From NCBI RefSeq assembly GCF_044324875.1, contig NZ_CP172185.1: a stretch of 64,000 nucleotides of DNA; one strand, 5' to 3'. This DNA comes from Escherichia coli (GTDB lineage Bacteria > Pseudomonadota > Gammaproteobacteria > Enterobacterales > Enterobacteriaceae). This document shows positions 1 through 53,131 of this stretch, in pieces. Each line of letters begins with the position of its first letter. Position 1 is the first letter of the stretch. The translations under genes and the position numbers were made by a program. The notes below the pieces were generated by a model. That model worked only from the letters and a program-made list of their open reading frames with translations, was not told the DNA's origin and made no database searches.

Positions 1-384
1 GGACAAAAGAAACGCGTCTTTCTGGCGAGAGCGATTGCACAGCAGGGTGATGTGATCCTGCTGGATGAACCTTTTACCGGCGTTGATGTGAAAACCGAAG
101 CCAAAATCATCAGCCTGTTGAGGGAGTTACGCGCGGAAGGCAAAACGATGCTTGTCTCAACGCACAATCTCGGATCCGTCACGACATTTTGCGATTATAC
201 GGTCATGGTCAAAGGCACCGTCCTGGCAAGCGGGCCGACAGACACCACTTTTACAGCCGAGAACCTGGAGCTGGCTTTTAGCGGCGTACTACGCCATGTC
301 ACACTTAAAGGCTCGGAAGAAAGCATTATTACTGACGATGAACGCCCCTTTGTGGCTTATCGACCATCAGCGGTGCAGAGGTAA
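1..384 (+). CDS. sitB: SitB, Mn/Fe ABC transporter ATP-binding protein (3' fragment; 5' end lies outside window)
   Basis: In-frame from base 1; translation carries ABC signature/Walker B region ([11 protein letters not shown]...TMLVSTHNL); followed by two permease genes in sitABCD order. Confidence 0.85.
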
Positions 385-4710: not shown

Positions 4711-6912
4711 TCAGAATAATACTGAGTAACTCAGACCAAAGGTGCGGCCCCTGCCTTTGTAGCCGTACAGTGAAGCAGGGCCGTAACCCGGGCTGTAGTA
4801 CAGTGGCGCACGCTGCCCCCAGACAGTGGTGTAGTCACGGTCGAAGAGGTTTTCAATGCTGAAGCTGAGTGTACCCACCGGAAGCTGATAACTGCCAAGC
4901 AAATCGACGATGGTATAGCCATCGACCTTGTAGCCCTGCGCGTCGCTCACGTCAAAGGAGGTGGTGCTCTGCACTCGCAGACTCCACGGGTCCGGTGCCC
5001 AGCCAATGTAGGCTGTCGCTTTTGATGGGCTTGCTGTCTTCACATCGTATTTCTGCCAGGTACCGTTCACTTTCGACTCAGTTTTCAGCACGTTGAAGTT
5101 CACTCCGGTACTCCAGTCAGTATCAGGAATCAGGTAGTCCACCGCACCTTCCACGCCGTAAATACGGCGTTTGTCGTCCACCACACTGATGGTCAGATCT
5201 TTATTCGCCACCACGCTCTTATCAGAAATCGAATAGTAGGCCGCGATTTGGGTGCGCAGATTATTGCCAGTAAAGCGCCAGCCCAGCTCATAAGAATCGA
5301 CTTTCACGCCTTCCAGCTTGCTGTCGCTGACGTTCACACTCTTTGTTAGAGGAAGATGGCCGTTCACTGCAGCACCATAGATGCCGCGACCATAGTATTT
5401 ACCCGGGTCCGGCAGCTCCACGCCCTGGGAGAAGTTGAGCCATGCCTGCTGGCGTTCGGTGATATGCATCAGCAGACCAGCGTTGAACAGGAAGTTGTCG
5501 TAATCGACTGAGCCGCCAGGAATGGCGTCGGCGGATGTAGCCTTCCCGGCGGCAATCTGCCGTTGCTGCGCGTAGCCGATGAAATCATCAATCTTGTTTT
5601 CAGTGTACTGATAGCGTACGCCACCGTTGAGGGTAAAGAGATTATTGATGTCATAGCCTGATTGCAGGAAGACCGCCAGGTTGGTGATGTCATACGACGG
5701 ATAGCGCCCGGTGGTGTAAATCTTCTTGTTGTTCAGCCCTCCGGAAGCGCTTGCTTGAGCCAGGTCGAAGAACATCTGGTTGGAGGTAAAGCGCTCATGA
5801 TCAGCATCCAGCCCCCAGGTGATTTGCCAGCCGTCCATCGGTTTGCTGTTCAGAGTCAGTTTCATGCCGTACTGGTCGGTGTCCTGCTGTGACGAAGAGA
5901 AAGCCGTCACCTGTTTGTTCGCATTTACCGTCGGGAACGGGTAGAATCGCAACGACTCATCGCGGTAGTAAACCTGACCGACCAGCTCCTGTCCCAGGAA
6001 AGCGCTGTCAGAGTACTGCAGGCTGATCAAATGCCGCTCAGTGCCGGGAATACGGTCGGAATTCAGCCCGTTACTGACGAAGGGCGTGCTGGTCCCTCTG
6101 ATGGCAGAGAAGCCTTTCCCGAGATTAAGCCCGTAATCGTCGTCGCCCTGGCTTTTATAGTACTGTGTGATCAACTGAAGCTGCCGGGATTCATCGATGT
6201 TCAACGTTCCAGTTCCCATGATGTCCAGCCGATCGGAGTACTGCAGGCCGGTCTGGGTGTTATCAAGCAGGGTGGCATCGCCGTTACCGTCAAACCAGCC
6301 GCCAAATTTCTGATATGCCACGGAAAGACGTCCGGAGATATGCTCATTTCCGCCGGAGACAGCTCCGGCAATGCGTTCATCGTGATCTTTACTGCTGCTA
6401 AAGCCACTTTTGGTGCCAGCCTCAAACTCCTTCATGGTTTCCGGCTGGCCTTTTTTGCTCACGATGTTGATCAGGCCACCGGTACTGCCGCCGCCATACA
6501 GGGACGTCGCACCGGAGATCACTTCAATATGGTCGATATTAAAAGGATCTATAGAGTCCAGTTGTCGGCTGTCGGTACGTGAAGAGTTGAGACGCACGCC
6601 GTCAACCAGCACGACCAGCGGGCGGCCACGCACATTCATACCGTAGTTGGTGCGGCTCCGGCTGCTGACGTCAAGGCCAGGGATCAGCTGAGCCAGTGCG
6701 TCCTTAAGCTCTTTGCCGCCCTGAATCTGCTGTTCCAGTTCGGCGTTTTCGATAACCCAGGTGGTTTGTGCCATCTCCGCTACGGTGCGATTGCTGCGGT
6801 TGGCAGACACCACGAACGTTTCATCATCGGTTTGTTGAGCGACTGCTGGCGCCATCATGGTAAGAAGCAGTGGGTTGAGAGCCCAAAGCGTATACTTTTT
6901 GCTTATCATCAT
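4711..6912 (-). CDS. iutA: IutA, TonB-dependent ferric aerobactin receptor
   Basis: 733 aa with signal peptide, TonB box region, plug and beta-barrel ending in aromatic residue (…SYSVLF); sits immediately downstream of iucD. Confidence 0.93.
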   Translation of the reverse strand: MMISKKYTLWALNPLLLTMMAPAVAQQTDDETFVVSANRSNRTVAEMAQTTWVIENAELEQQIQGGKELKDALAQLIPGLDVSSRSRTNYGMNVRGRPLVVLVDGVRLNSSRTDSRQLDSIDPFNIDHIEVISGATSLYGGGSTGGLINIVSKKGQPETMKEFEAGTKSGFSSSKDHDERIAGAVSGGNEHISGRLSVAYQKFGGWFDGNGDATLLDNTQTGLQYSDRLDIMGTGTLNIDESRQLQLITQYYKSQGDDDYGLNLGKGFSAIRGTSTPFVSNGLNSDRIPGTERHLISLQYSDSAFLGQELVGQVYYRDESLRFYPFPTVNANKQVTAFSSSQQDTDQYGMKLTLNSKPMDGWQITWGLDADHERFTSNQMFFDLAQASASGGLNNKKIYTTGRYPSYDITNLAVFLQSGYDINNLFTLNGGVRYQYTENKIDDFIGYAQQRQIAAGKATSADAIPGGSVDYDNFLFNAGLLMHITERQQAWLNFSQGVELPDPGKYYGRGIYGAAVNGHLPLTKSVNVSDSKLEGVKVDSYELGWRFTGNNLRTQIAAYYSISDKSVVANKDLTISVVDDKRRIYGVEGAVDYLIPDTDWSTGVNFNVLKTESKVNGTWQKYDVKTASPSKATAYIGWAPDPWSLRVQSTTSFDVSDAQGYKVDGYTIVDLLGSYQLPVGTLSFSIENLFDRDYTTVWGQRAPLYYSPGYGPASLYGYKGRGRTFGLSYSVLF

Positions 6913-45204: not shown

Positions 45205-45407
45205 AACCTCACTCCCAGCGGACGACGGCGACGTCGGGTTGTCCCCAGTACCGACTCCGCATCATTGATCGCCCGGTTAAGCTCATCCAGAGAAGCCGCC
45301 GTATATTCAATTCTGCGACCATCTTTCTGGACAGACACCACCCGTTTACCGGTTAATAAATCAAGGCGCGCCTGACGCAGCGCCTGCAGTTCAGCGACTG
45401 TAACCAT
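45201..45407 (-). CDS. Head-tail joining protein (lambda gpW-like)
   Basis: 68 aa, same length as lambda W. Confidence 0.85.
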   Translation of the reverse strand: MVTVAELQALRQARLDLLTGKRVVSVQKDGRRIEYTAASLDELNRAINDAESVLGTTRRRRRPLGVRL

Positions 45408-47319
45408 TCACTCCTCCGGACAGCTTCGCTGCCAGTTCTTTAAGGGTTGGCCGGGTCGTCTCTTCTTCCCGGGATTTTGCCAGTACAGCCAGATCAAGCT
45501 GCCAGCGTTGCACGGACACACGTAATGCCGCGTAGGCATACACCAGGCAGTCCAGCGCTTCGTTACGCCGCTTTTTGTTATCCCACAGCAGACGCATCTT
45601 TCCTTTTTCCCACTTCTCCACAAGCTCTTCCGCGACCAGTTGCTGCGCCTCTGTCTGCGAAAAAATCTCCGGATCATCAGGAAAACGGATAGCATACGAC
45701 GTGGATTCATCCGCAGGCGTGGGAGCGGCTTTCATACGGGCATAGAGAATTTCTTTTGCGGTGTCTGTCCCCACTTCACACAGATACACGCCCCGCTGAT
45801 TGCGGGTTTTTGGCATGGTGATCACCGGCTTGCCATAGACAGATGCGCCTTTTACCGGCAGCACCCGGAAAACACCGTGTTTTTTTGACCTCTGATAAAC
45901 GATTTCTCCATCGATCCCCCCGATGTCCCAGCAGACACGGGAAATGGTCATTTCGGTTCCGTCTGCATGGCAGTATTTTTTGTTGATCGCTGCATCCACA
46001 CGTAACAGCGTCTCTTCCTCATCGGGACGCCCCATAATAATGATTTTATCCACCAGAAAGGCTTCCTCTCCCGGAGCCCATCCCCAGACATACATCTCAA
46101 AACGGTTTCGCTGCGAGTCAATGCCCGCCGTCAGATAAACCACCCGGGCAGGCACCGCCGCCGTGTAACGCACAACCTTATCCATCAGTACCTGGTGATC
46201 GAGTTTTTCGCCCACGGCCTCTTCCCAGGTCTCGCCCAGCGTGGTGTTCACAAAGGTTTTCAGGCCGTTGGGATCTTTCAGTGCATCCAGCCAGTCATAG
46301 ACTATCTGTACCCAGGTGGTGAACGGACTGTACGCCGTCCAGATATGGAAAGTGATGGAGCGCGGCGGCGGAATTTCATCACCCCGGGCGCTGAAAAACA
46401 TCAGGCCGTCACGGGTCCACATCCCCGTGTTTTCACAGATCCACCGCCCGTTACTCTGGTCAAGCTCAGACTGATGGATCACACAGCCATGATGCTCACA
46501 AAGGTAGAAAACGCTTTCGGGGCTGTCCTTCTCCCATTTAAGGCCAAAAGGCGTGGATTCATCGCCAAATTTCAGATACTGCGCCTCCCCACAGTGCGGG
46601 CAGGGCACATAAAAACGCATGAAATGTGCCGACTCGTTAGCGGCTTTTTCGATCTGGCAGGAGCCTTTGATTTTAGGCGTCGAGCCGCGAATGGATTTTG
46701 GCCATACAGAGCCCTCAATACGCTTATCCCCCAGCAGGGTTGGCGAGCCCTCTTTTTCAACATCAGGTTCAAACGATGAGAGTTCGTCATAGCAGACCAC
46801 GTCCACGGATTTTTCACGGTAGTTTTTTGCTGCCGCACCACCCAGGCACCAGAAGCCCACACCCGATGAAAAGCGTTTCAGCGTGAGAGTATTGTCACGA
46901 TGTTTACGCCCCAGCCATGGAGAAAGGTCTTTCAGACATGACACATCCCGAATCGTCGCCTCCACGTGAGACTTCATAAAATCTTCAGCGGCAGAATCCG
47001 TGGGCTGAAAAAGCAGACTGTTTCGGGATTTATGCTCAATAAAATACCCGACCACCCCCAGCAACATCTTTGTATAACCAATACGGGCAGATTTAATCAG
47101 GTTAACAGTGCGAATCAGATCGTTGCCCATACAGTTCATGATGGCGATCTGGAACGGCAGCGTTTTCCATTCTCCCTCACCATATGAAGATTCTTTAGGC
47201 AGATAATAATTTTGATCAGCCCATTCAACTGCCGTCACCGGCAATGCCCTTATCAGGGGCTGTAATGCTGTTGTGACAGCACTCATCATATTATTCAGTT
47301 GTTGCTCTGATATATTCAT
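45391..47319 (-). CDS. Terminase large subunit (lambda gpA-like)
   Basis: Start refined to MNISEQQL (642 aa); conserved blocks match lambda A. Confidence 0.92.
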   Translation of the reverse strand: MNISEQQLNNMMSAVTTALQPLIRALPVTAVEWADQNYYLPKESSYGEGEWKTLPFQIAIMNCMGNDLIRTVNLIKSARIGYTKMLLGVVGYFIEHKSRNSLLFQPTDSAAEDFMKSHVEATIRDVSCLKDLSPWLGRKHRDNTLTLKRFSSGVGFWCLGGAAAKNYREKSVDVVCYDELSSFEPDVEKEGSPTLLGDKRIEGSVWPKSIRGSTPKIKGSCQIEKAANESAHFMRFYVPCPHCGEAQYLKFGDESTPFGLKWEKDSPESVFYLCEHHGCVIHQSELDQSNGRWICENTGMWTRDGLMFFSARGDEIPPPRSITFHIWTAYSPFTTWVQIVYDWLDALKDPNGLKTFVNTTLGETWEEAVGEKLDHQVLMDKVVRYTAAVPARVVYLTAGIDSQRNRFEMYVWGWAPGEEAFLVDKIIIMGRPDEEETLLRVDAAINKKYCHADGTEMTISRVCWDIGGIDGEIVYQRSKKHGVFRVLPVKGASVYGKPVITMPKTRNQRGVYLCEVGTDTAKEILYARMKAAPTPADESTSYAIRFPDDPEIFSQTEAQQLVAEELVEKWEKGKMRLLWDNKKRRNEALDCLVYAYAALRVSVQRWQLDLAVLAKSREEETTRPTLKELAAKLSGGVNGYSR

Positions 47320-47800
47320 CGAGTAAATCCGGTAATTTATCCCCTGCCCGCGCACACTGATTTGCCCCCTTCGCAATAAGGGTTTTCAGATGGTCAAGAT
47401 GGCGCGGTGTTAAATCAGGAAACTGTCGTTGCATGGATAAAGGGATGGAATCAAGCGTACTGGATAACGCCATTGCCAGCTTGCTGAGGGCAAAAATACA
47501 GAATCCGGTGTCAATAAGTTTTCCTTTTGACACCTCATTTTTTAACTGCTGTGTAACAGCCTGTTCTGCTGTCAGTTCCCATCTGGCAATAAGCAATTTC
47601 TCCTCATAGTCGTCTTCGCTATCGCCATCAGGCACATCGTTTTTACTTCTTCTCAGATACGATATGTAAAAATCACGCCAGGCATCCAGATCCAGTTGCC
47701 CTCGCTTATTCGATATCGGGGCACCCGGCAATTTCTGCAGTCTGCGAAGCTGGCGATCGGTCAGACTCAAATGCCTGGCAACTTCAGTCTGCGTAGCCAC
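47291..47800 (-). CDS. Terminase small subunit (lambda Nu1-like)
   Basis: 169 aa; winged-HTH N-terminus; overlaps the start of A as in lambda. Confidence 0.88.
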   Translation of the reverse strand: MATQTEVARHLSLTDRQLRRLQKLPGAPISNKRGQLDLDAWRDFYISYLRRSKNDVPDGDSEDDYEEKLLIARWELTAEQAVTQQLKNEVSKGKLIDTGFCIFALSKLAMALSSTLDSIPLSMQRQFPDLTPRHLDHLKTLIAKGANQCARAGDKLPDLLDEYIRATTE

Positions 47801-47999
47801 TGTTCACCTCGCAAAAAATCTCCCCTCATGCGTTTTAAACATGCATCTTGCGAGCAACTTTATGCAAACGCACGCATATGTCCGGTTTGTTTGTACATTT
47901 TTTGCACATGTCCGGTTCGCAGAAAGCATGTTTTTATATTTTTCATATAGTTAACTTGCAGAGAAACCGGACATGGATCCCGGAAAATTTTCATAAATA

Positions 48000-48035
48000 G
48001 CGAAAACGCGCGAGGTCGACGCCCCGTAACGGGCC
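48000..48035 (-). other. cos site (cosN cohesive-end sequence GGGCGTCGACCT at 48013..48024, with cosB-like flank)
   Basis: Minus strand reads ttacggggcgtcgacctcgcgcgttttcgctatttatgaaaattttccgg, near-identical to the lambda cos region; 224 bp upstream of Nu1. Confidence 0.8.
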
Positions 48036-48174
48036 GGATTGCCGGAAAGGACCCGAAAAAACGAGAATAATTATCACTTACAGCAAGAATCGAATCTGAT
48101 CTATTCTGATGCTTGCTATTATGTGCCGGCACAAGTGCGTCGTTTACCGTCATTTCACACAGAGGCATCATCAA

Positions 48175-48426
48175 ATGAAAATCAGAAATATTCTCGCTAT
48201 CTCCCTTGCAACATCATCCTTCAGTTGCCTGGCATTTAAACCCTCGCCCAATGTGCTACCAGGACCAACGAATCAACTAACTGCGGTAGAAAGTAAAATT
48301 ATCGGACATTTTTATGCCCCACACAGTGCATTACCCGGAACAACCATCACAGGGACATGTGACGCCTCCCCCATTCCGGGATGCACCTGTCCGTTTTGTA
48401 CTATGCTGCGTAGCCAAAACCGATAA
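48175..48426 (+). CDS. Small secreted Cys-rich protein (signal peptide MKIRNILAISLATSSFSCLA)
   Basis: ATG with GAGG-type RBS; hydrophobic leader; opposite strand to the phage late operon. Confidence 0.4.
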   Translation: MKIRNILAISLATSSFSCLAFKPSPNVLPGPTNQLTAVESKIIGHFYAPHSALPGTTITGTCDASPIPGCTCPFCTMLRSQNR

Positions 48427-48790
48427 CATCCGCATTTACCTGGTATTCCATGATGAGTTCACGCAGCGACTGATAGAGGAAGGAAAGATGGTTAGCAAAA
48501 GCAAAGGCGCATTGCCGCCGCATGCTGCAGGCATTGCAACAGACGAGAGCAGATATTTTTGACCAGTTGGAAAACTGCCAGCATACTTTGCCCGAGCATA
48601 TCGCCATCTCATCGGAAACCAGTGCAACTCTTATTCATCGGGTTACACCAGAGAAAAAGAAGAAATGAACAGTGAGGCGTTGTGTGGCATACAACGCCTT
48701 CTTCCATCATTTCTCGTCAGCCATGACAAAAATATAACCGCTGGCTCTTTCATTTTTCTCCTGCTTCCAGCCCCTCTCTACCTGGAAGCA

Positions 48791-49117
48791 TCAGGGACGT
48801 GATGGCGTAAAGATAAATTGTCTCTTCACTCCCTGACGGGGACTATTCTTTTCAAATCTCCATTTCGCCATGGCCTTCACCACTTCATCACGAAACAAAT
48901 TATGAGGCTCTGAGCGGAGAAAAACGATCCGTGTCACAGTCCCGTCAGCACCAATATCGAACTTAACCTCAACCAGCCCCTTGATATAATTTGCTGCAGC
49001 ATATTCCGGATATCGTGGATACACCGTCACTAATTGCCGGGGCTCATCAGCTTTTTGCTGCGAGCATCCCACTGCCAGGGCAGATAACAGAAAAAGTAGT
49101 GAAAGGCGTCTTTTCAT
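48791..49117 (-). CDS. Lipoprotein with TonB C-terminal-like domain
   Basis: Signal peptide plus Cys (MKRRLSLLFLLSALAVGC); C-terminal 75 aa align motif-by-motif with the E. coli TonB C-terminal domain. Confidence 0.6.
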   Translation of the reverse strand: MKRRLSLLFLLSALAVGCSQQKADEPRQLVTVYPRYPEYAAANYIKGLVEVKFDIGADGTVTRIVFLRSEPHNLFRDEVVKAMAKWRFEKNSPRQGVKRQFIFTPSRP

Positions 49118-49548
49118 TTTTATTCCTACGGGTCTTATTCTGACAATATATCCTGTGTTCCAGACTGCCACATCACCACATCCTGTGCCATTATCTGACT
49201 CACATTACATACATCGCATCAGGATACAGTAGTAGCACTTTCTGTAATACAGCTTCCGGTTTCTTCCACCATCGCACCGGACAGGCGACTATGAGGGATA
49301 AACCCGCGAATCATTAACGCGGTAAAAACCCGGTGTACATCGTTTTTGATTATTCCCGCACACTCGCGCAGAAGGAGTTCCCCGTCGGGCTACGGTTTCT
49401 GTTCATACGGGAATACGGCGACTATATAGCGAATGATGTGTCAGGCTTGAATACCTTTATCCGTTAAAAGGGATATCAATTAAGTTATCCCGTACAGGGT
49501 ATAAGCCATTATCAAAGCCACTCTGTAGCGAATGGCTTTTGTAATGGA

Positions 49549-49998
49549 CTATTTAATTAGTGATGCTGCGTATTCGATTAGATATAACTTAGGTGCCAGC
49601 CAGATTTTTAACCATGTCATATTGGTTACTGCACAAATAATAAAAATCCCCCACATAGTCAAAACTCCAACCAATGGCACGATAAGAAGATTAATATCAC
49701 CTTTGCTATCCCAAACCATTGTCGGCCTGTATTTGGGATTTCCCTTCTCCCATGAATATCCTTCATCACCGATTTTACCTGTCTCAACTCTTTGGCACTG
49801 CTTCTTCATAAACCAGAAAACCAGAGGGATTGTTGAAATGGCTATTAATGTTTTAATCAGGCTATCAACCATATTCCATACCAGCAACTGATGAACAACA
49901 TCCGGAATCTGAGCCTGACTGAATGCAATGGCGGAATCAATTCCATCGCTGGCCTTCTTCAATAAATCAACAAGAATTTTATTTGCTTCTTCTTGCAT
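49549..49998 (-). CDS. Small inner-membrane protein encoded in AT-rich DNA (start at internal Met MQEEANKIL)
   Basis: Two or three predicted TM helices; sharp drop in GC at about 50000; upstream part of the 209-aa ORF is a different, GC-rich reading context. Confidence 0.45.
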   Translation of the reverse strand: MQEEANKILVDLLKKASDGIDSAIAFSQAQIPDVVHQLLVWNMVDSLIKTLIAISTIPLVFWFMKKQCQRVETGKIGDEGYSWEKGNPKYRPTMVWDSKGDINLLIVPLVGVLTMWGIFIICAVTNMTWLKIWLAPKLYLIEYAASLIK

Positions 49999-50174
49999 GT
50001 TTATATCCTGTAAGTTGTAAACCGGTTCGAACAAATAAGTTACCAAGAGAGACAAAGATACCGAGCAACCACGGTCGCACACGATGTTTATCGCAGTAAC
50101 CAGAACTGTCTGTGATTGTACCTGCGCATCCACGCTTACGGCAGGCACGTGGGATTCGTGATGGCATAAATACC

Positions 50175-50375
50175 TCACACCCTGTTCAGTTGAATGACGG
50201 GCTGATTCTCGATATGTTCTGCTGTCAGTCTGAAAGTCACAGTGACTGTTGGTGGCTCGCCTCCGCGTGACTCTGTCCTGGCGGAAAGCTGCCCCTCCAG
50301 TAACTCACCATTAACTGCAATCCCATACCCTGCGAAATGTTTACCGCGATAAAGTTTTGCCAGTTGGTAATTCAT
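50175..50375 (-). CDS. Hypothetical small protein
   Basis: 66 aa ORF translationally coupled (ATGA overlap) to the upstream small ORF. Confidence 0.4.
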   Translation of the reverse strand: MNYQLAKLYRGKHFAGYGIAVNGELLEGQLSARTESRGGEPPTVTVTFRLTAEHIENQPVIQLNRV

Positions 50376-50629
50376 TTGCCTGCATCCTCCAGCGACAACC
50401 CAATTCGCCCATGAAGCAATGTGGCCGATACAATCCCGGCATTACACTCAACGATTATATCTTCATCCGTGGCATCCACTTCATATATTCGTGAATAACA
50501 TTCCGTGCATTTACCACTGAATGTACCTTCAGCCAGAACACGACCACGCTGTAAAATCCGGAACGGGATTCTTCCATTAAAGAGCTTTGCGGTTACCAGT
50601 AATTTCTTCATACATTCTCCTGATAACAA
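50372..50629 (-). CDS. Hypothetical small protein with CxxC pair
   Basis: 85 aa ORF starting 6 bp after Rz stop. Confidence 0.4.
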   Translation of the reverse strand: MLSGECMKKLLVTAKLFNGRIPFRILQRGRVLAEGTFSGKCTECYSRIYEVDATDEDIIVECNAGIVSATLLHGRIGLSLEDAGK

Positions 50630-50634
50630 AAAGG

Positions 50635-51117
50635 CTACTTAATGCACTGAGTGCGGATATACTCCTGTGCCCCTTCCAGTTGCTTCTGCATCGTCATCAA
50701 CCGTTCTCTGAGGGTGAAATAATCCCGTTCAGCGGTGTCTGCCAGTCGGGGGCTGGTTGCATTATCCACGCTGGTGGGTCCGGTGGCTTCACGCACGGCT
50801 TCGGAGCAACTGGCATTGACCCGCAGGCGCTTACGGCCAGCGGCAACATCAGCGCGCAGAGTTTCATTTTCAGCTTTCGCATTGGCTAATTCTCTCGAGT
50901 ACTTTGCATCGAGCGCAGCAACATCACGCTGACGCTGCTGCATGTCAGTAATGGTGGCGGTCGCCTGCTTCAGTTCACTGACTTTTTTATCACGCTGTTC
51001 TTTGTAGGCTATGGCGTTATCACGGTAATGATTGACCGCCAACGACAGGCAGACGATGATGCAGATAACCAGAGCATAAATAATCGCGGCGACTCTGCTC
51101 ACTGATCTATCCCCCAA
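50635..51117 (-). CDS. Rz i-spanin
   Basis: 160 aa with N-terminal TM and coiled-coil; near-identical blocks to lambda Rz. Confidence 0.92.
50697..50882 (-). CDS. Rz1 o-spanin lipoprotein, embedded in Rz in +1 frame
   Basis: 61 aa with lipobox and proline-rich core (…[30 protein letters not shown]). Confidence 0.9.
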
Positions 51118-52977: not shown

Positions 52978-53054
52978 TGGACCGCCACCGGGGACTCGAA
53001 CCCCGCACAGTCAGCTTAGAAGGCTGATGCTCTCTCATGATGAGCTAGTGGCGG
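52978..53054 (-). tRNA. tRNA-Arg (anticodon UCU)
   Basis: Folds by eye: 7-bp acceptor (CCGCCAC/GTGGCGG), D arm, anticodon loop CTTCTAA, T arm CGGGG-TTCGAGT-CCCCG. Confidence 0.7.
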
Positions 53055-53055
53055 T

Positions 53056-53131
53056 TGGTGGCCCTTGCTGGATTTGAACCAGCGACCTGGCGATTATGAG
53101 TCGCTCGCTCTCACCACTGAGCTAAAGGGCC
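53056..53131 (-). tRNA. tRNA-Ile2 (anticodon CAU), ileX/ileZ-like
   Basis: GGCCCTTTAGCTCAGTGGTGAGAGCGAGCGACTCATAATCGCCAGGTCGCTGGTTCAAATCCAGCAAGGGCCACCA; very close to E. coli ileX. Confidence 0.8.

Follow-up and report, generated by a model that had tools for sequence, protein, structure and literature searches.

An HNH endonuclease gene remnant at a packaging-module junction in an Escherichia coli prophage

Gene content of the late region

The window analysed here, by which we mean the whole 64,000-nucleotide stretch of Escherichia coli contig NZ_CP172185.1, contains a lambdoid late region whose genes, as discussed below, lie on the minus strand. The lysozyme gene (51632-51099) is followed by Rz with Rz1 embedded in it (51117-50635) and by two small open reading frames (ORFs) of 79 aa (50372..50611; PHROG 2571) and 66 aa (50175..50375; PHROG 10235), both of which accompany an HNH endonuclease gene in intact relatives. 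The 62-codon ORF that is the subject of this study (49979..50167) comes next. It starts with ATG, has a GAGG Shine-Dalgarno motif (50176-50173) 5 nt 5' of that codon, and is chimeric, with 29 codons of an HNH gene followed by 33 codons of read-through.

The ORF overlaps by 20 nt the start of an AT-rich gene for a 149-aa membrane protein with two transmembrane segments (49549..49998; PHROG 3054, E=6e-61), so that its stop codon falls 17-19 nt past the ATG of that gene. In N15-like plasmid prophages and in phage PhiR46_1 the membrane gene, called cargo in a preliminary description of this DNA, likewise separates the lysis genes from Nu1. Next are a predicted 108-aa lipoprotein gene with a TonB_C domain (48791-49117; PF03544, E=3e-13) and a lambda-like cos region (48013..48052; GGGTCCTTTCCGG...GTTACG, then GGGCGTCGACCT) with a cohesive-end-like 12-mer at 48024-48013. 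We take this region to resemble lambda cosQ/cosN (GGGCGGCGACCT). The terminase genes are of lambda type, the small one belonging to the Nu1 family (47291..47800; PF07471 Phage_Nu1, E=1e-18) and the large one to the gpA family (45391..47322; PF05876 GpA_ATPase, E=1e-53; PF20454 GpA_nuclease, E=3e-70).

The first 29 codons derive from an HNH endonuclease gene

The preliminary description reported a 62-codon minus-strand ORF whose N-terminus resembled phage HNH endonucleases, and proposed a profile search and a comparison with prophages that retain a full-length gene. The ORF is present with the N-terminus as quoted, and both comparisons show the resemblance to be homology. Residues 1-33 match the PHROG 144 profile, annotated as HNH endonuclease (E=1.1e-7). 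Residues 1-29 (MPSRIPRACRKRGCAGTITDSSGYCDKHR; 50081..50167) share 28 of 29 amino acids with intact 116-aa HNH proteins, while residues 30-62 are unrelated to them. At the nucleotide level the 5' end is ~98% identical to intact HNH genes in other E. coli prophages, and a pairwise alignment with an intact gene has only 2 mismatches in the 120 nt preceding the break.

The genomic context agrees. The 1,574 nt from 51648 to 50075 share 96% identity with the Stx1d prophage of strain 2014C-3075 (L002), in which the lysozyme, Rz, 79-aa and 66-aa ORFs recur and are followed, at exactly the same site, by an intact 116-aa HNH gene. The alignment ends inside that gene, and the shared neighbours and nucleotide identity identify the ORF by position as orthologous to the full-length genes. 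That it could be a chance reading frame with a superficial HNH resemblance might be argued from its shortness and from scans of both the 62-aa ORF and its 29-aa HNH part against Pfam and NCBIfam, which returned zero families. We give this reading practically no weight, as it is refuted by the nucleotide identity, the conserved gene order and the PHROG 144 match; the scans are empty, as expected, since the break precedes the HNH domain.

In the intact protein (MPSRIPRACRKRGCAGTTTDSSGYCDKHRGEGWVQHQRG...) the catalytic domain, PF01844, spans residues 66-112 (E=2e-17), and it was detected in the intact relative only. Thus, 29 of 116 codons are kept and the catalytic HNH domain is absent; neither Pfam nor NCBIfam recognises in the 62-aa ORF the beta-beta-alpha-Me fold with its [CxxC]2 zinc site. 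What the stub retains is the N-terminal zinc ribbon (CxxxxC...CxxH), with the ligands C9-x4-C14 and C25-x2-H28 present. The combination of an N-terminal zinc ribbon and a C-terminal HNH domain defines the 'Group 1' HNH nicking enzymes of Xu & Gupta 2013 (PMC3592412). Compared with this packaging-associated class, that of HK97 gp74, the stub represents the 5' end, has the same ribbon and stands at the same place, the end of the lysis region, but lacks the residue 66-112 domain.

The ORF is shorter than its intact homologues and loses homology to them past the break, as expected of a pseudogene. Its last 33 codons read through foreign non-coding DNA, made up of a repeat and the leader and start of the membrane gene. 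We conclude that it is very probably a functionless 5' remnant of a phage HNH endonuclease gene of the packaging-associated class. To judge from its sequence, the 62-aa product cannot act as a nuclease. Its own start codon and ribosome-binding site survive, and a 62-aa peptide consisting of the zinc ribbon and 33 junk residues would probably be made if a late transcript exists.

We also considered whether the ORF is a working small gene, encoding either a stand-alone zinc-ribbon peptide or a leader that couples or tunes translation of the membrane gene. The intact Shine-Dalgarno motif, the ATG, the open frame of 62 codons and the position of the stop codon just inside the membrane gene would all fit, and stand-alone zinc-ribbon proteins adjoin some phage HNH genes (PMC3592412). 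Against this, residues 30-62 come from non-coding repeat and leader DNA that is untranslated in this frame in relatives, the window has no partner HNH gene, and the predicted fold of the junction RNA is no more stable than shuffled sequences (z=+1.5). Sequence variation that could show purifying selection on the ORF is lacking, as the 15 copies in the database do not differ from one another across the junction. The NCBI annotation pipeline PGAP moreover treats the locus as a pseudogene. We therefore regard a working gene as very unlikely, and an effect of the stub on membrane gene translation as conceivable but unsupported.

The 15 copies were retrieved by megablast of positions 49400-50700 against 5,426 complete E. 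coli genomes, and all have the same arrangement at 99.8% identity. In 14 of these 15 near-identical RefSeq genomes PGAP labels 102 nt 'HNH endonuclease; incomplete; missing C-terminus' (in strain 135, L001:4533-4634), and in the fifteenth it calls a partial 'DUF8602 domain-containing protein'. The reading as a truncated remnant, already put forward in the preliminary description, is thus borne out, and the locus is an ordinary one that public genomes already annotate as an HNH pseudogene. The 62-aa ORF ought to be annotated neither as a gene nor as an HNH endonuclease.

The break lies at a five-nucleotide microhomology

Pairwise alignments place the last HNH-homologous base at 50080, that is at codon 29 plus 1 nt, or at 50075 if a 1-nt gap is allowed. 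The preliminary description had let the remnant end where GC content drops, at about 50000. The drop is real, from 0.50 (50000-50299) to 0.41 (49700-49999) and 0.38 (49550-49849), but the homology stops earlier, about 80 nt upstream of both the drop and the membrane gene ATG (49998). None of the sequence beyond the break in the Stx1d prophage of strain 2014C-3075 was found in the window.

On the other side of the break, the window can be compared with an IMG/VR contig (L043), in which a DUF4406-like gene is followed by TTTCTCGC, an 18-nt repeat and a 64-nt leader, after which comes the membrane gene. Gap-free colinearity between window and contig starts at 50084 and extends through the membrane gene (89% identity across 519 nt), with the repeat at 50063..50080 and the leader at 49999..50062. 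Alignments to L002, L004 and L043 locate the crossover in the motif TCGTG (50080..50084, minus strand), which is common to HNH codons 28-30 (CATCGTGGC) and to the sequence that borders the repeat on its left in N15-like phages (TCTCGTGTGCGACC). The HNH parent reads AAACATCGTG followed by GCGAAGG, the repeat parent TTTCTCGTG followed by TGCGACC, and the window AAACATCGTG followed by TGCGACC. A microhomology of 5 nt is typical of illegitimate recombination.

As the window is colinear with L043, one join is enough to account for the junction. We had considered two events, a join of the HNH gene to the repeat and the deletion of an 861-bp gene at TGTC, and dropped this reading since L043 has the repeat directly before the membrane gene. 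The 861-bp gene stands between repeat and membrane gene in L004 (2074-2934), in L003 (4350-5210) and in N15-like plasmids; in L003 and L004 it matches no Pfam family. Neither the window nor L043 has it, and TGTC is common to the two ends of this indel.

An orphan centromere repeat adjoins the break

The SopB centromere sites of N15 are said to have been described by Ravin & Lane in 1999. In Table 4 of PMC7205306, the one and indirect source for the N15 repeat positions and functional data used here, the sites IR1-IR4 of the N15 plasmid prophage all have the form GTGCGACC-NN-GGTCGCAC. The 18 nt that abut the stub, GTGCGACCGTGGTTGCTC, match this consensus at 16 of 18 positions and lie directly upstream of the membrane gene, as do perfect copies in N15-like phages. 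Both mismatches fall in the right arm, so that the window copy is a decayed form; a scan of the window allowing up to 3-4 mismatches found no second copy. The perfect form, GTGCGACCGTGGTCGCAC, lies just upstream of the membrane-gene cassette in relatives.

A 46-kb N15-like plasmid, pEC21Z151-46K (L129), agrees with this identification. It carries four perfect copies and one near-perfect copy (7889, 10332, 14711, 17751 and 17971), has the membrane gene flanked by lysis genes and Nu1, and encodes a protelomerase, the CyRepA1 replication protein, SopA and ParB. When its SopA, SopB, TelN and RepA were used as tblastn queries against the window nothing was found, and none of the four is annotated in the twin prophage of strain 135. 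Unlike N15, this twin has integrated into the chromosome beside ompW, and it has a complete lambda-like set of head and tail genes. With no SopA/SopB encoded in the window, the centromere repeat is an orphan and probably inert.

Outside this locus the repeat is common. An exact-match scan of IMG/VR recovered it in at least 120 stretches with at least 82 distinct combinations of flanks, and in up to four copies per 10 kb among the matches listed. The sequence comparisons suggest that N15-like plasmid prophages frequently exchange DNA with integrated ones.

ParB-type proteins spread along DNA and silence nearby promoters. It is conceivable, although we think it extremely improbable, that the orphan repeat may still bind the SopB of a co-resident N15-like plasmid prophage and so damp a rival's late expression or packaging. 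Were this true, SopB would sit in the late operon just before the membrane gene and cos, and the plasmid prophage could dampen its integrated rival; equally, the chromosome could titrate SopB and so destabilise the plasmid.

Other roles for the 18-nt hairpin were discarded. A terminator was rejected, as the terminator scan found none and the sequence is an N15 SopB site, and an RNase III site or a generic hot spot at module boundaries was dropped once that match had been made.

The packaging genes differ across the junction

Phage HNH genes commonly adjoin cos and the terminase genes (PMC3592412), and intact relatives of the stub follow this pattern. Their HNH genes precede a P27-type small terminase (Terminase_4) and an HK97-like large terminase (TerL_ATPase/TerL_nuclease), with cos and the terminases next to the HNH gene. 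In strain 2014C-3075 a minus-strand ORF separates the HNH gene from the P27-family small terminase and the large terminase behind it, and in phage phi467 the order is Rz, HNH, small terminase, large terminase, portal. In contrast, the stub adjoins Nu1 and gpA genes, and the terminase families in the window are Phage_Nu1 and GpA_ATPase/GpA_nuclease in place of the P27-type and HK97-like ones.

The preliminary description proposed that the membrane gene replaced the rest of the HNH gene. A replacement is evident, but the incoming DNA begins with the decayed N15-type centromere repeat and not with the membrane gene, and the exchange took in the whole downstream packaging module as well as the rest of the HNH gene.

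A module swap would account for these observations as follows. The ancestral late operon would have comprised lysozyme, Rz/Rz1, the 79-aa and 66-aa ORFs, the 116-aa HNH gene, and P27-type small and HK97-like large terminase genes, with an HNH protein of that class helping terminase to cut cos. A single illegitimate join at TCGTG (50084-50080) would then have connected HNH codon 29 with DNA from a different lambdoid lineage, bringing in the N15-type SopB repeat, the membrane gene, the TonB_C lipoprotein gene, a lambda-like cos and the Nu1/gpA genes, so that an HNH-type packaging module was replaced by a lambda-type one. According to PMC9410871, which cites Kala et al. 2014, cutting of cos by the HK97 terminase is promoted by the HNH protein GP74, and lambda lacks such a protein. 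Because lambda-type packaging uses no HNH protein, the loss of the catalytic domain would have been free of cost and the stub could have persisted, as the leftover of the helper nuclease of an old HNH-dependent system.

Several points weaken this account. The 5-nt microhomology could be a coincidence. For this subgroup the functional link between HNH protein and terminase would rest, by analogy, on gene order and family resemblance, HK97 gp74 being without the N-terminal zinc ribbon. The closest relative of the right-hand side of the junction is only 89-90% identical, and the exact parents were not found. Both the direction of the event and the involvement of two phages rather than one deletion are our inference.

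An internal deletion in a single ancestral prophage whose intact HNH gene was followed, at some distance downstream, by the repeat and membrane cassette would produce the same junction as recombination between phages. Short microhomology at the junction is typical of either process, and at least 20 of the repeat-bearing IMG/VR stretches also encode full-length HNH homologues, so that both can share one genome. Among the matches listed, however, loci with both have the repeat hundreds to thousands of bases from the HNH gene and never have the repeat and membrane gene directly downstream of it. A chimeric query found none of 5,426 E. coli genomes with the HNH 3' part within ~770 nt of the repeat-membrane 5' region; this search for an intermediate reached ~770 nt, and a deletion over a longer distance is compatible with it. 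The terminase type also differs across the junction, which argues against a deletion. Overall, we consider an internal deletion unlikely.

The HNH gene is carried by ~975 of the 5,426 E. coli genomes, but the junction by only 15, and all 15 copies are 100% identical over the 101 nt spanning the join, in keeping with one event. A second, independent HNH stub is found on IMG/VR contig 2778261458_000009 (L017; IMGVR_UViG_2778261458_000009; 1-367, minus strand). The gene concerned is a different HNH homologue (60% aa identity) that breaks off near codon 49, where it joins the 3' end of a widespread non-coding pre-cos segment, followed by a perfect centromere repeat and a lambda-like cos. On the sequences compared, HNH stubs thus seem to be scars that recur when lambda-type packaging modules displace HNH-type ones.

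In lambdoid phages, mosaic module exchange takes a form that the locus shares in part: homology breaks sharply between the lysis and packaging modules, with morons (the membrane protein and TonB_C lipoprotein genes) in between. Unlike the usual exchange, the break lies inside a gene and not at a gene boundary, and so leaves a visible pseudogene, and the join has only 5 nt of microhomology. As a routine recombination scar of mosaic phages, the stub has little importance in itself. Its value is modest and lies in a precisely mapped swap of a lambdoid packaging module, joined inside a gene at a 5-nt microhomology, in which the centromere repeat marks the incoming DNA as kin to N15-like linear plasmid prophages.

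Further observations

At 50381 the window has one A more than strain 135 (L001), and the other 14 twins are also one base shorter. With the extra A, the two small ORFs of 79 aa and 66 aa are read separately with an ATGA overlap, which is also the arrangement in the Stx1d prophage of strain 2014C-3075; without it, PGAP calls a single 89-aa protein and no 66-aa ORF.

A stretch of the window from 47237 to 48008, covering cos and the 5' part of the Nu1 gene, has no alignment to the otherwise 99.8%-identical strain 135 prophage, and the terminase genes beyond it are just 94.7% identical to that prophage. The match of the window Nu1 protein to its Pfam profile starts at profile position 62. A further mosaic joint at the DNA-binding end of the small terminase is what these comparisons point to. 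Between the membrane gene and cos, the TonB_C lipoprotein gene is moron-like.

No family was matched in an Rfam scan of 47700-51000, and a promoter and terminator scan of the stub region gave no signal above background. Downstream of the membrane gene is a non-coding segment of ~180-300 nt (49242-49547 in the window, minus strand; 1841-2020 in L004). Two copies are present in L003 (4001-4304 and about 5790-6076). The segment at 49242-49547 occurs in 3,180 of the 5,426 E. coli genomes, mostly without an annotated feature, and in N15-like plasmids it is bracketed by two centromere repeats. The repeat itself is often paired 220 nt apart among the IMG/VR matches listed (L008-L127), and it is also present in chromosomally integrated lambdoid prophages, L003 being an example.

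Q and the lysis genes are separated by two prophage tRNA genes (52978-53131, minus strand). ARAGORN identifies them as tRNA-Arg(tct) and a tRNA with a CAT anticodon labelled Met, while PGAP annotates the latter as tRNA-Ile, which suggests that it is of the lysidine-modified Ile2 type.
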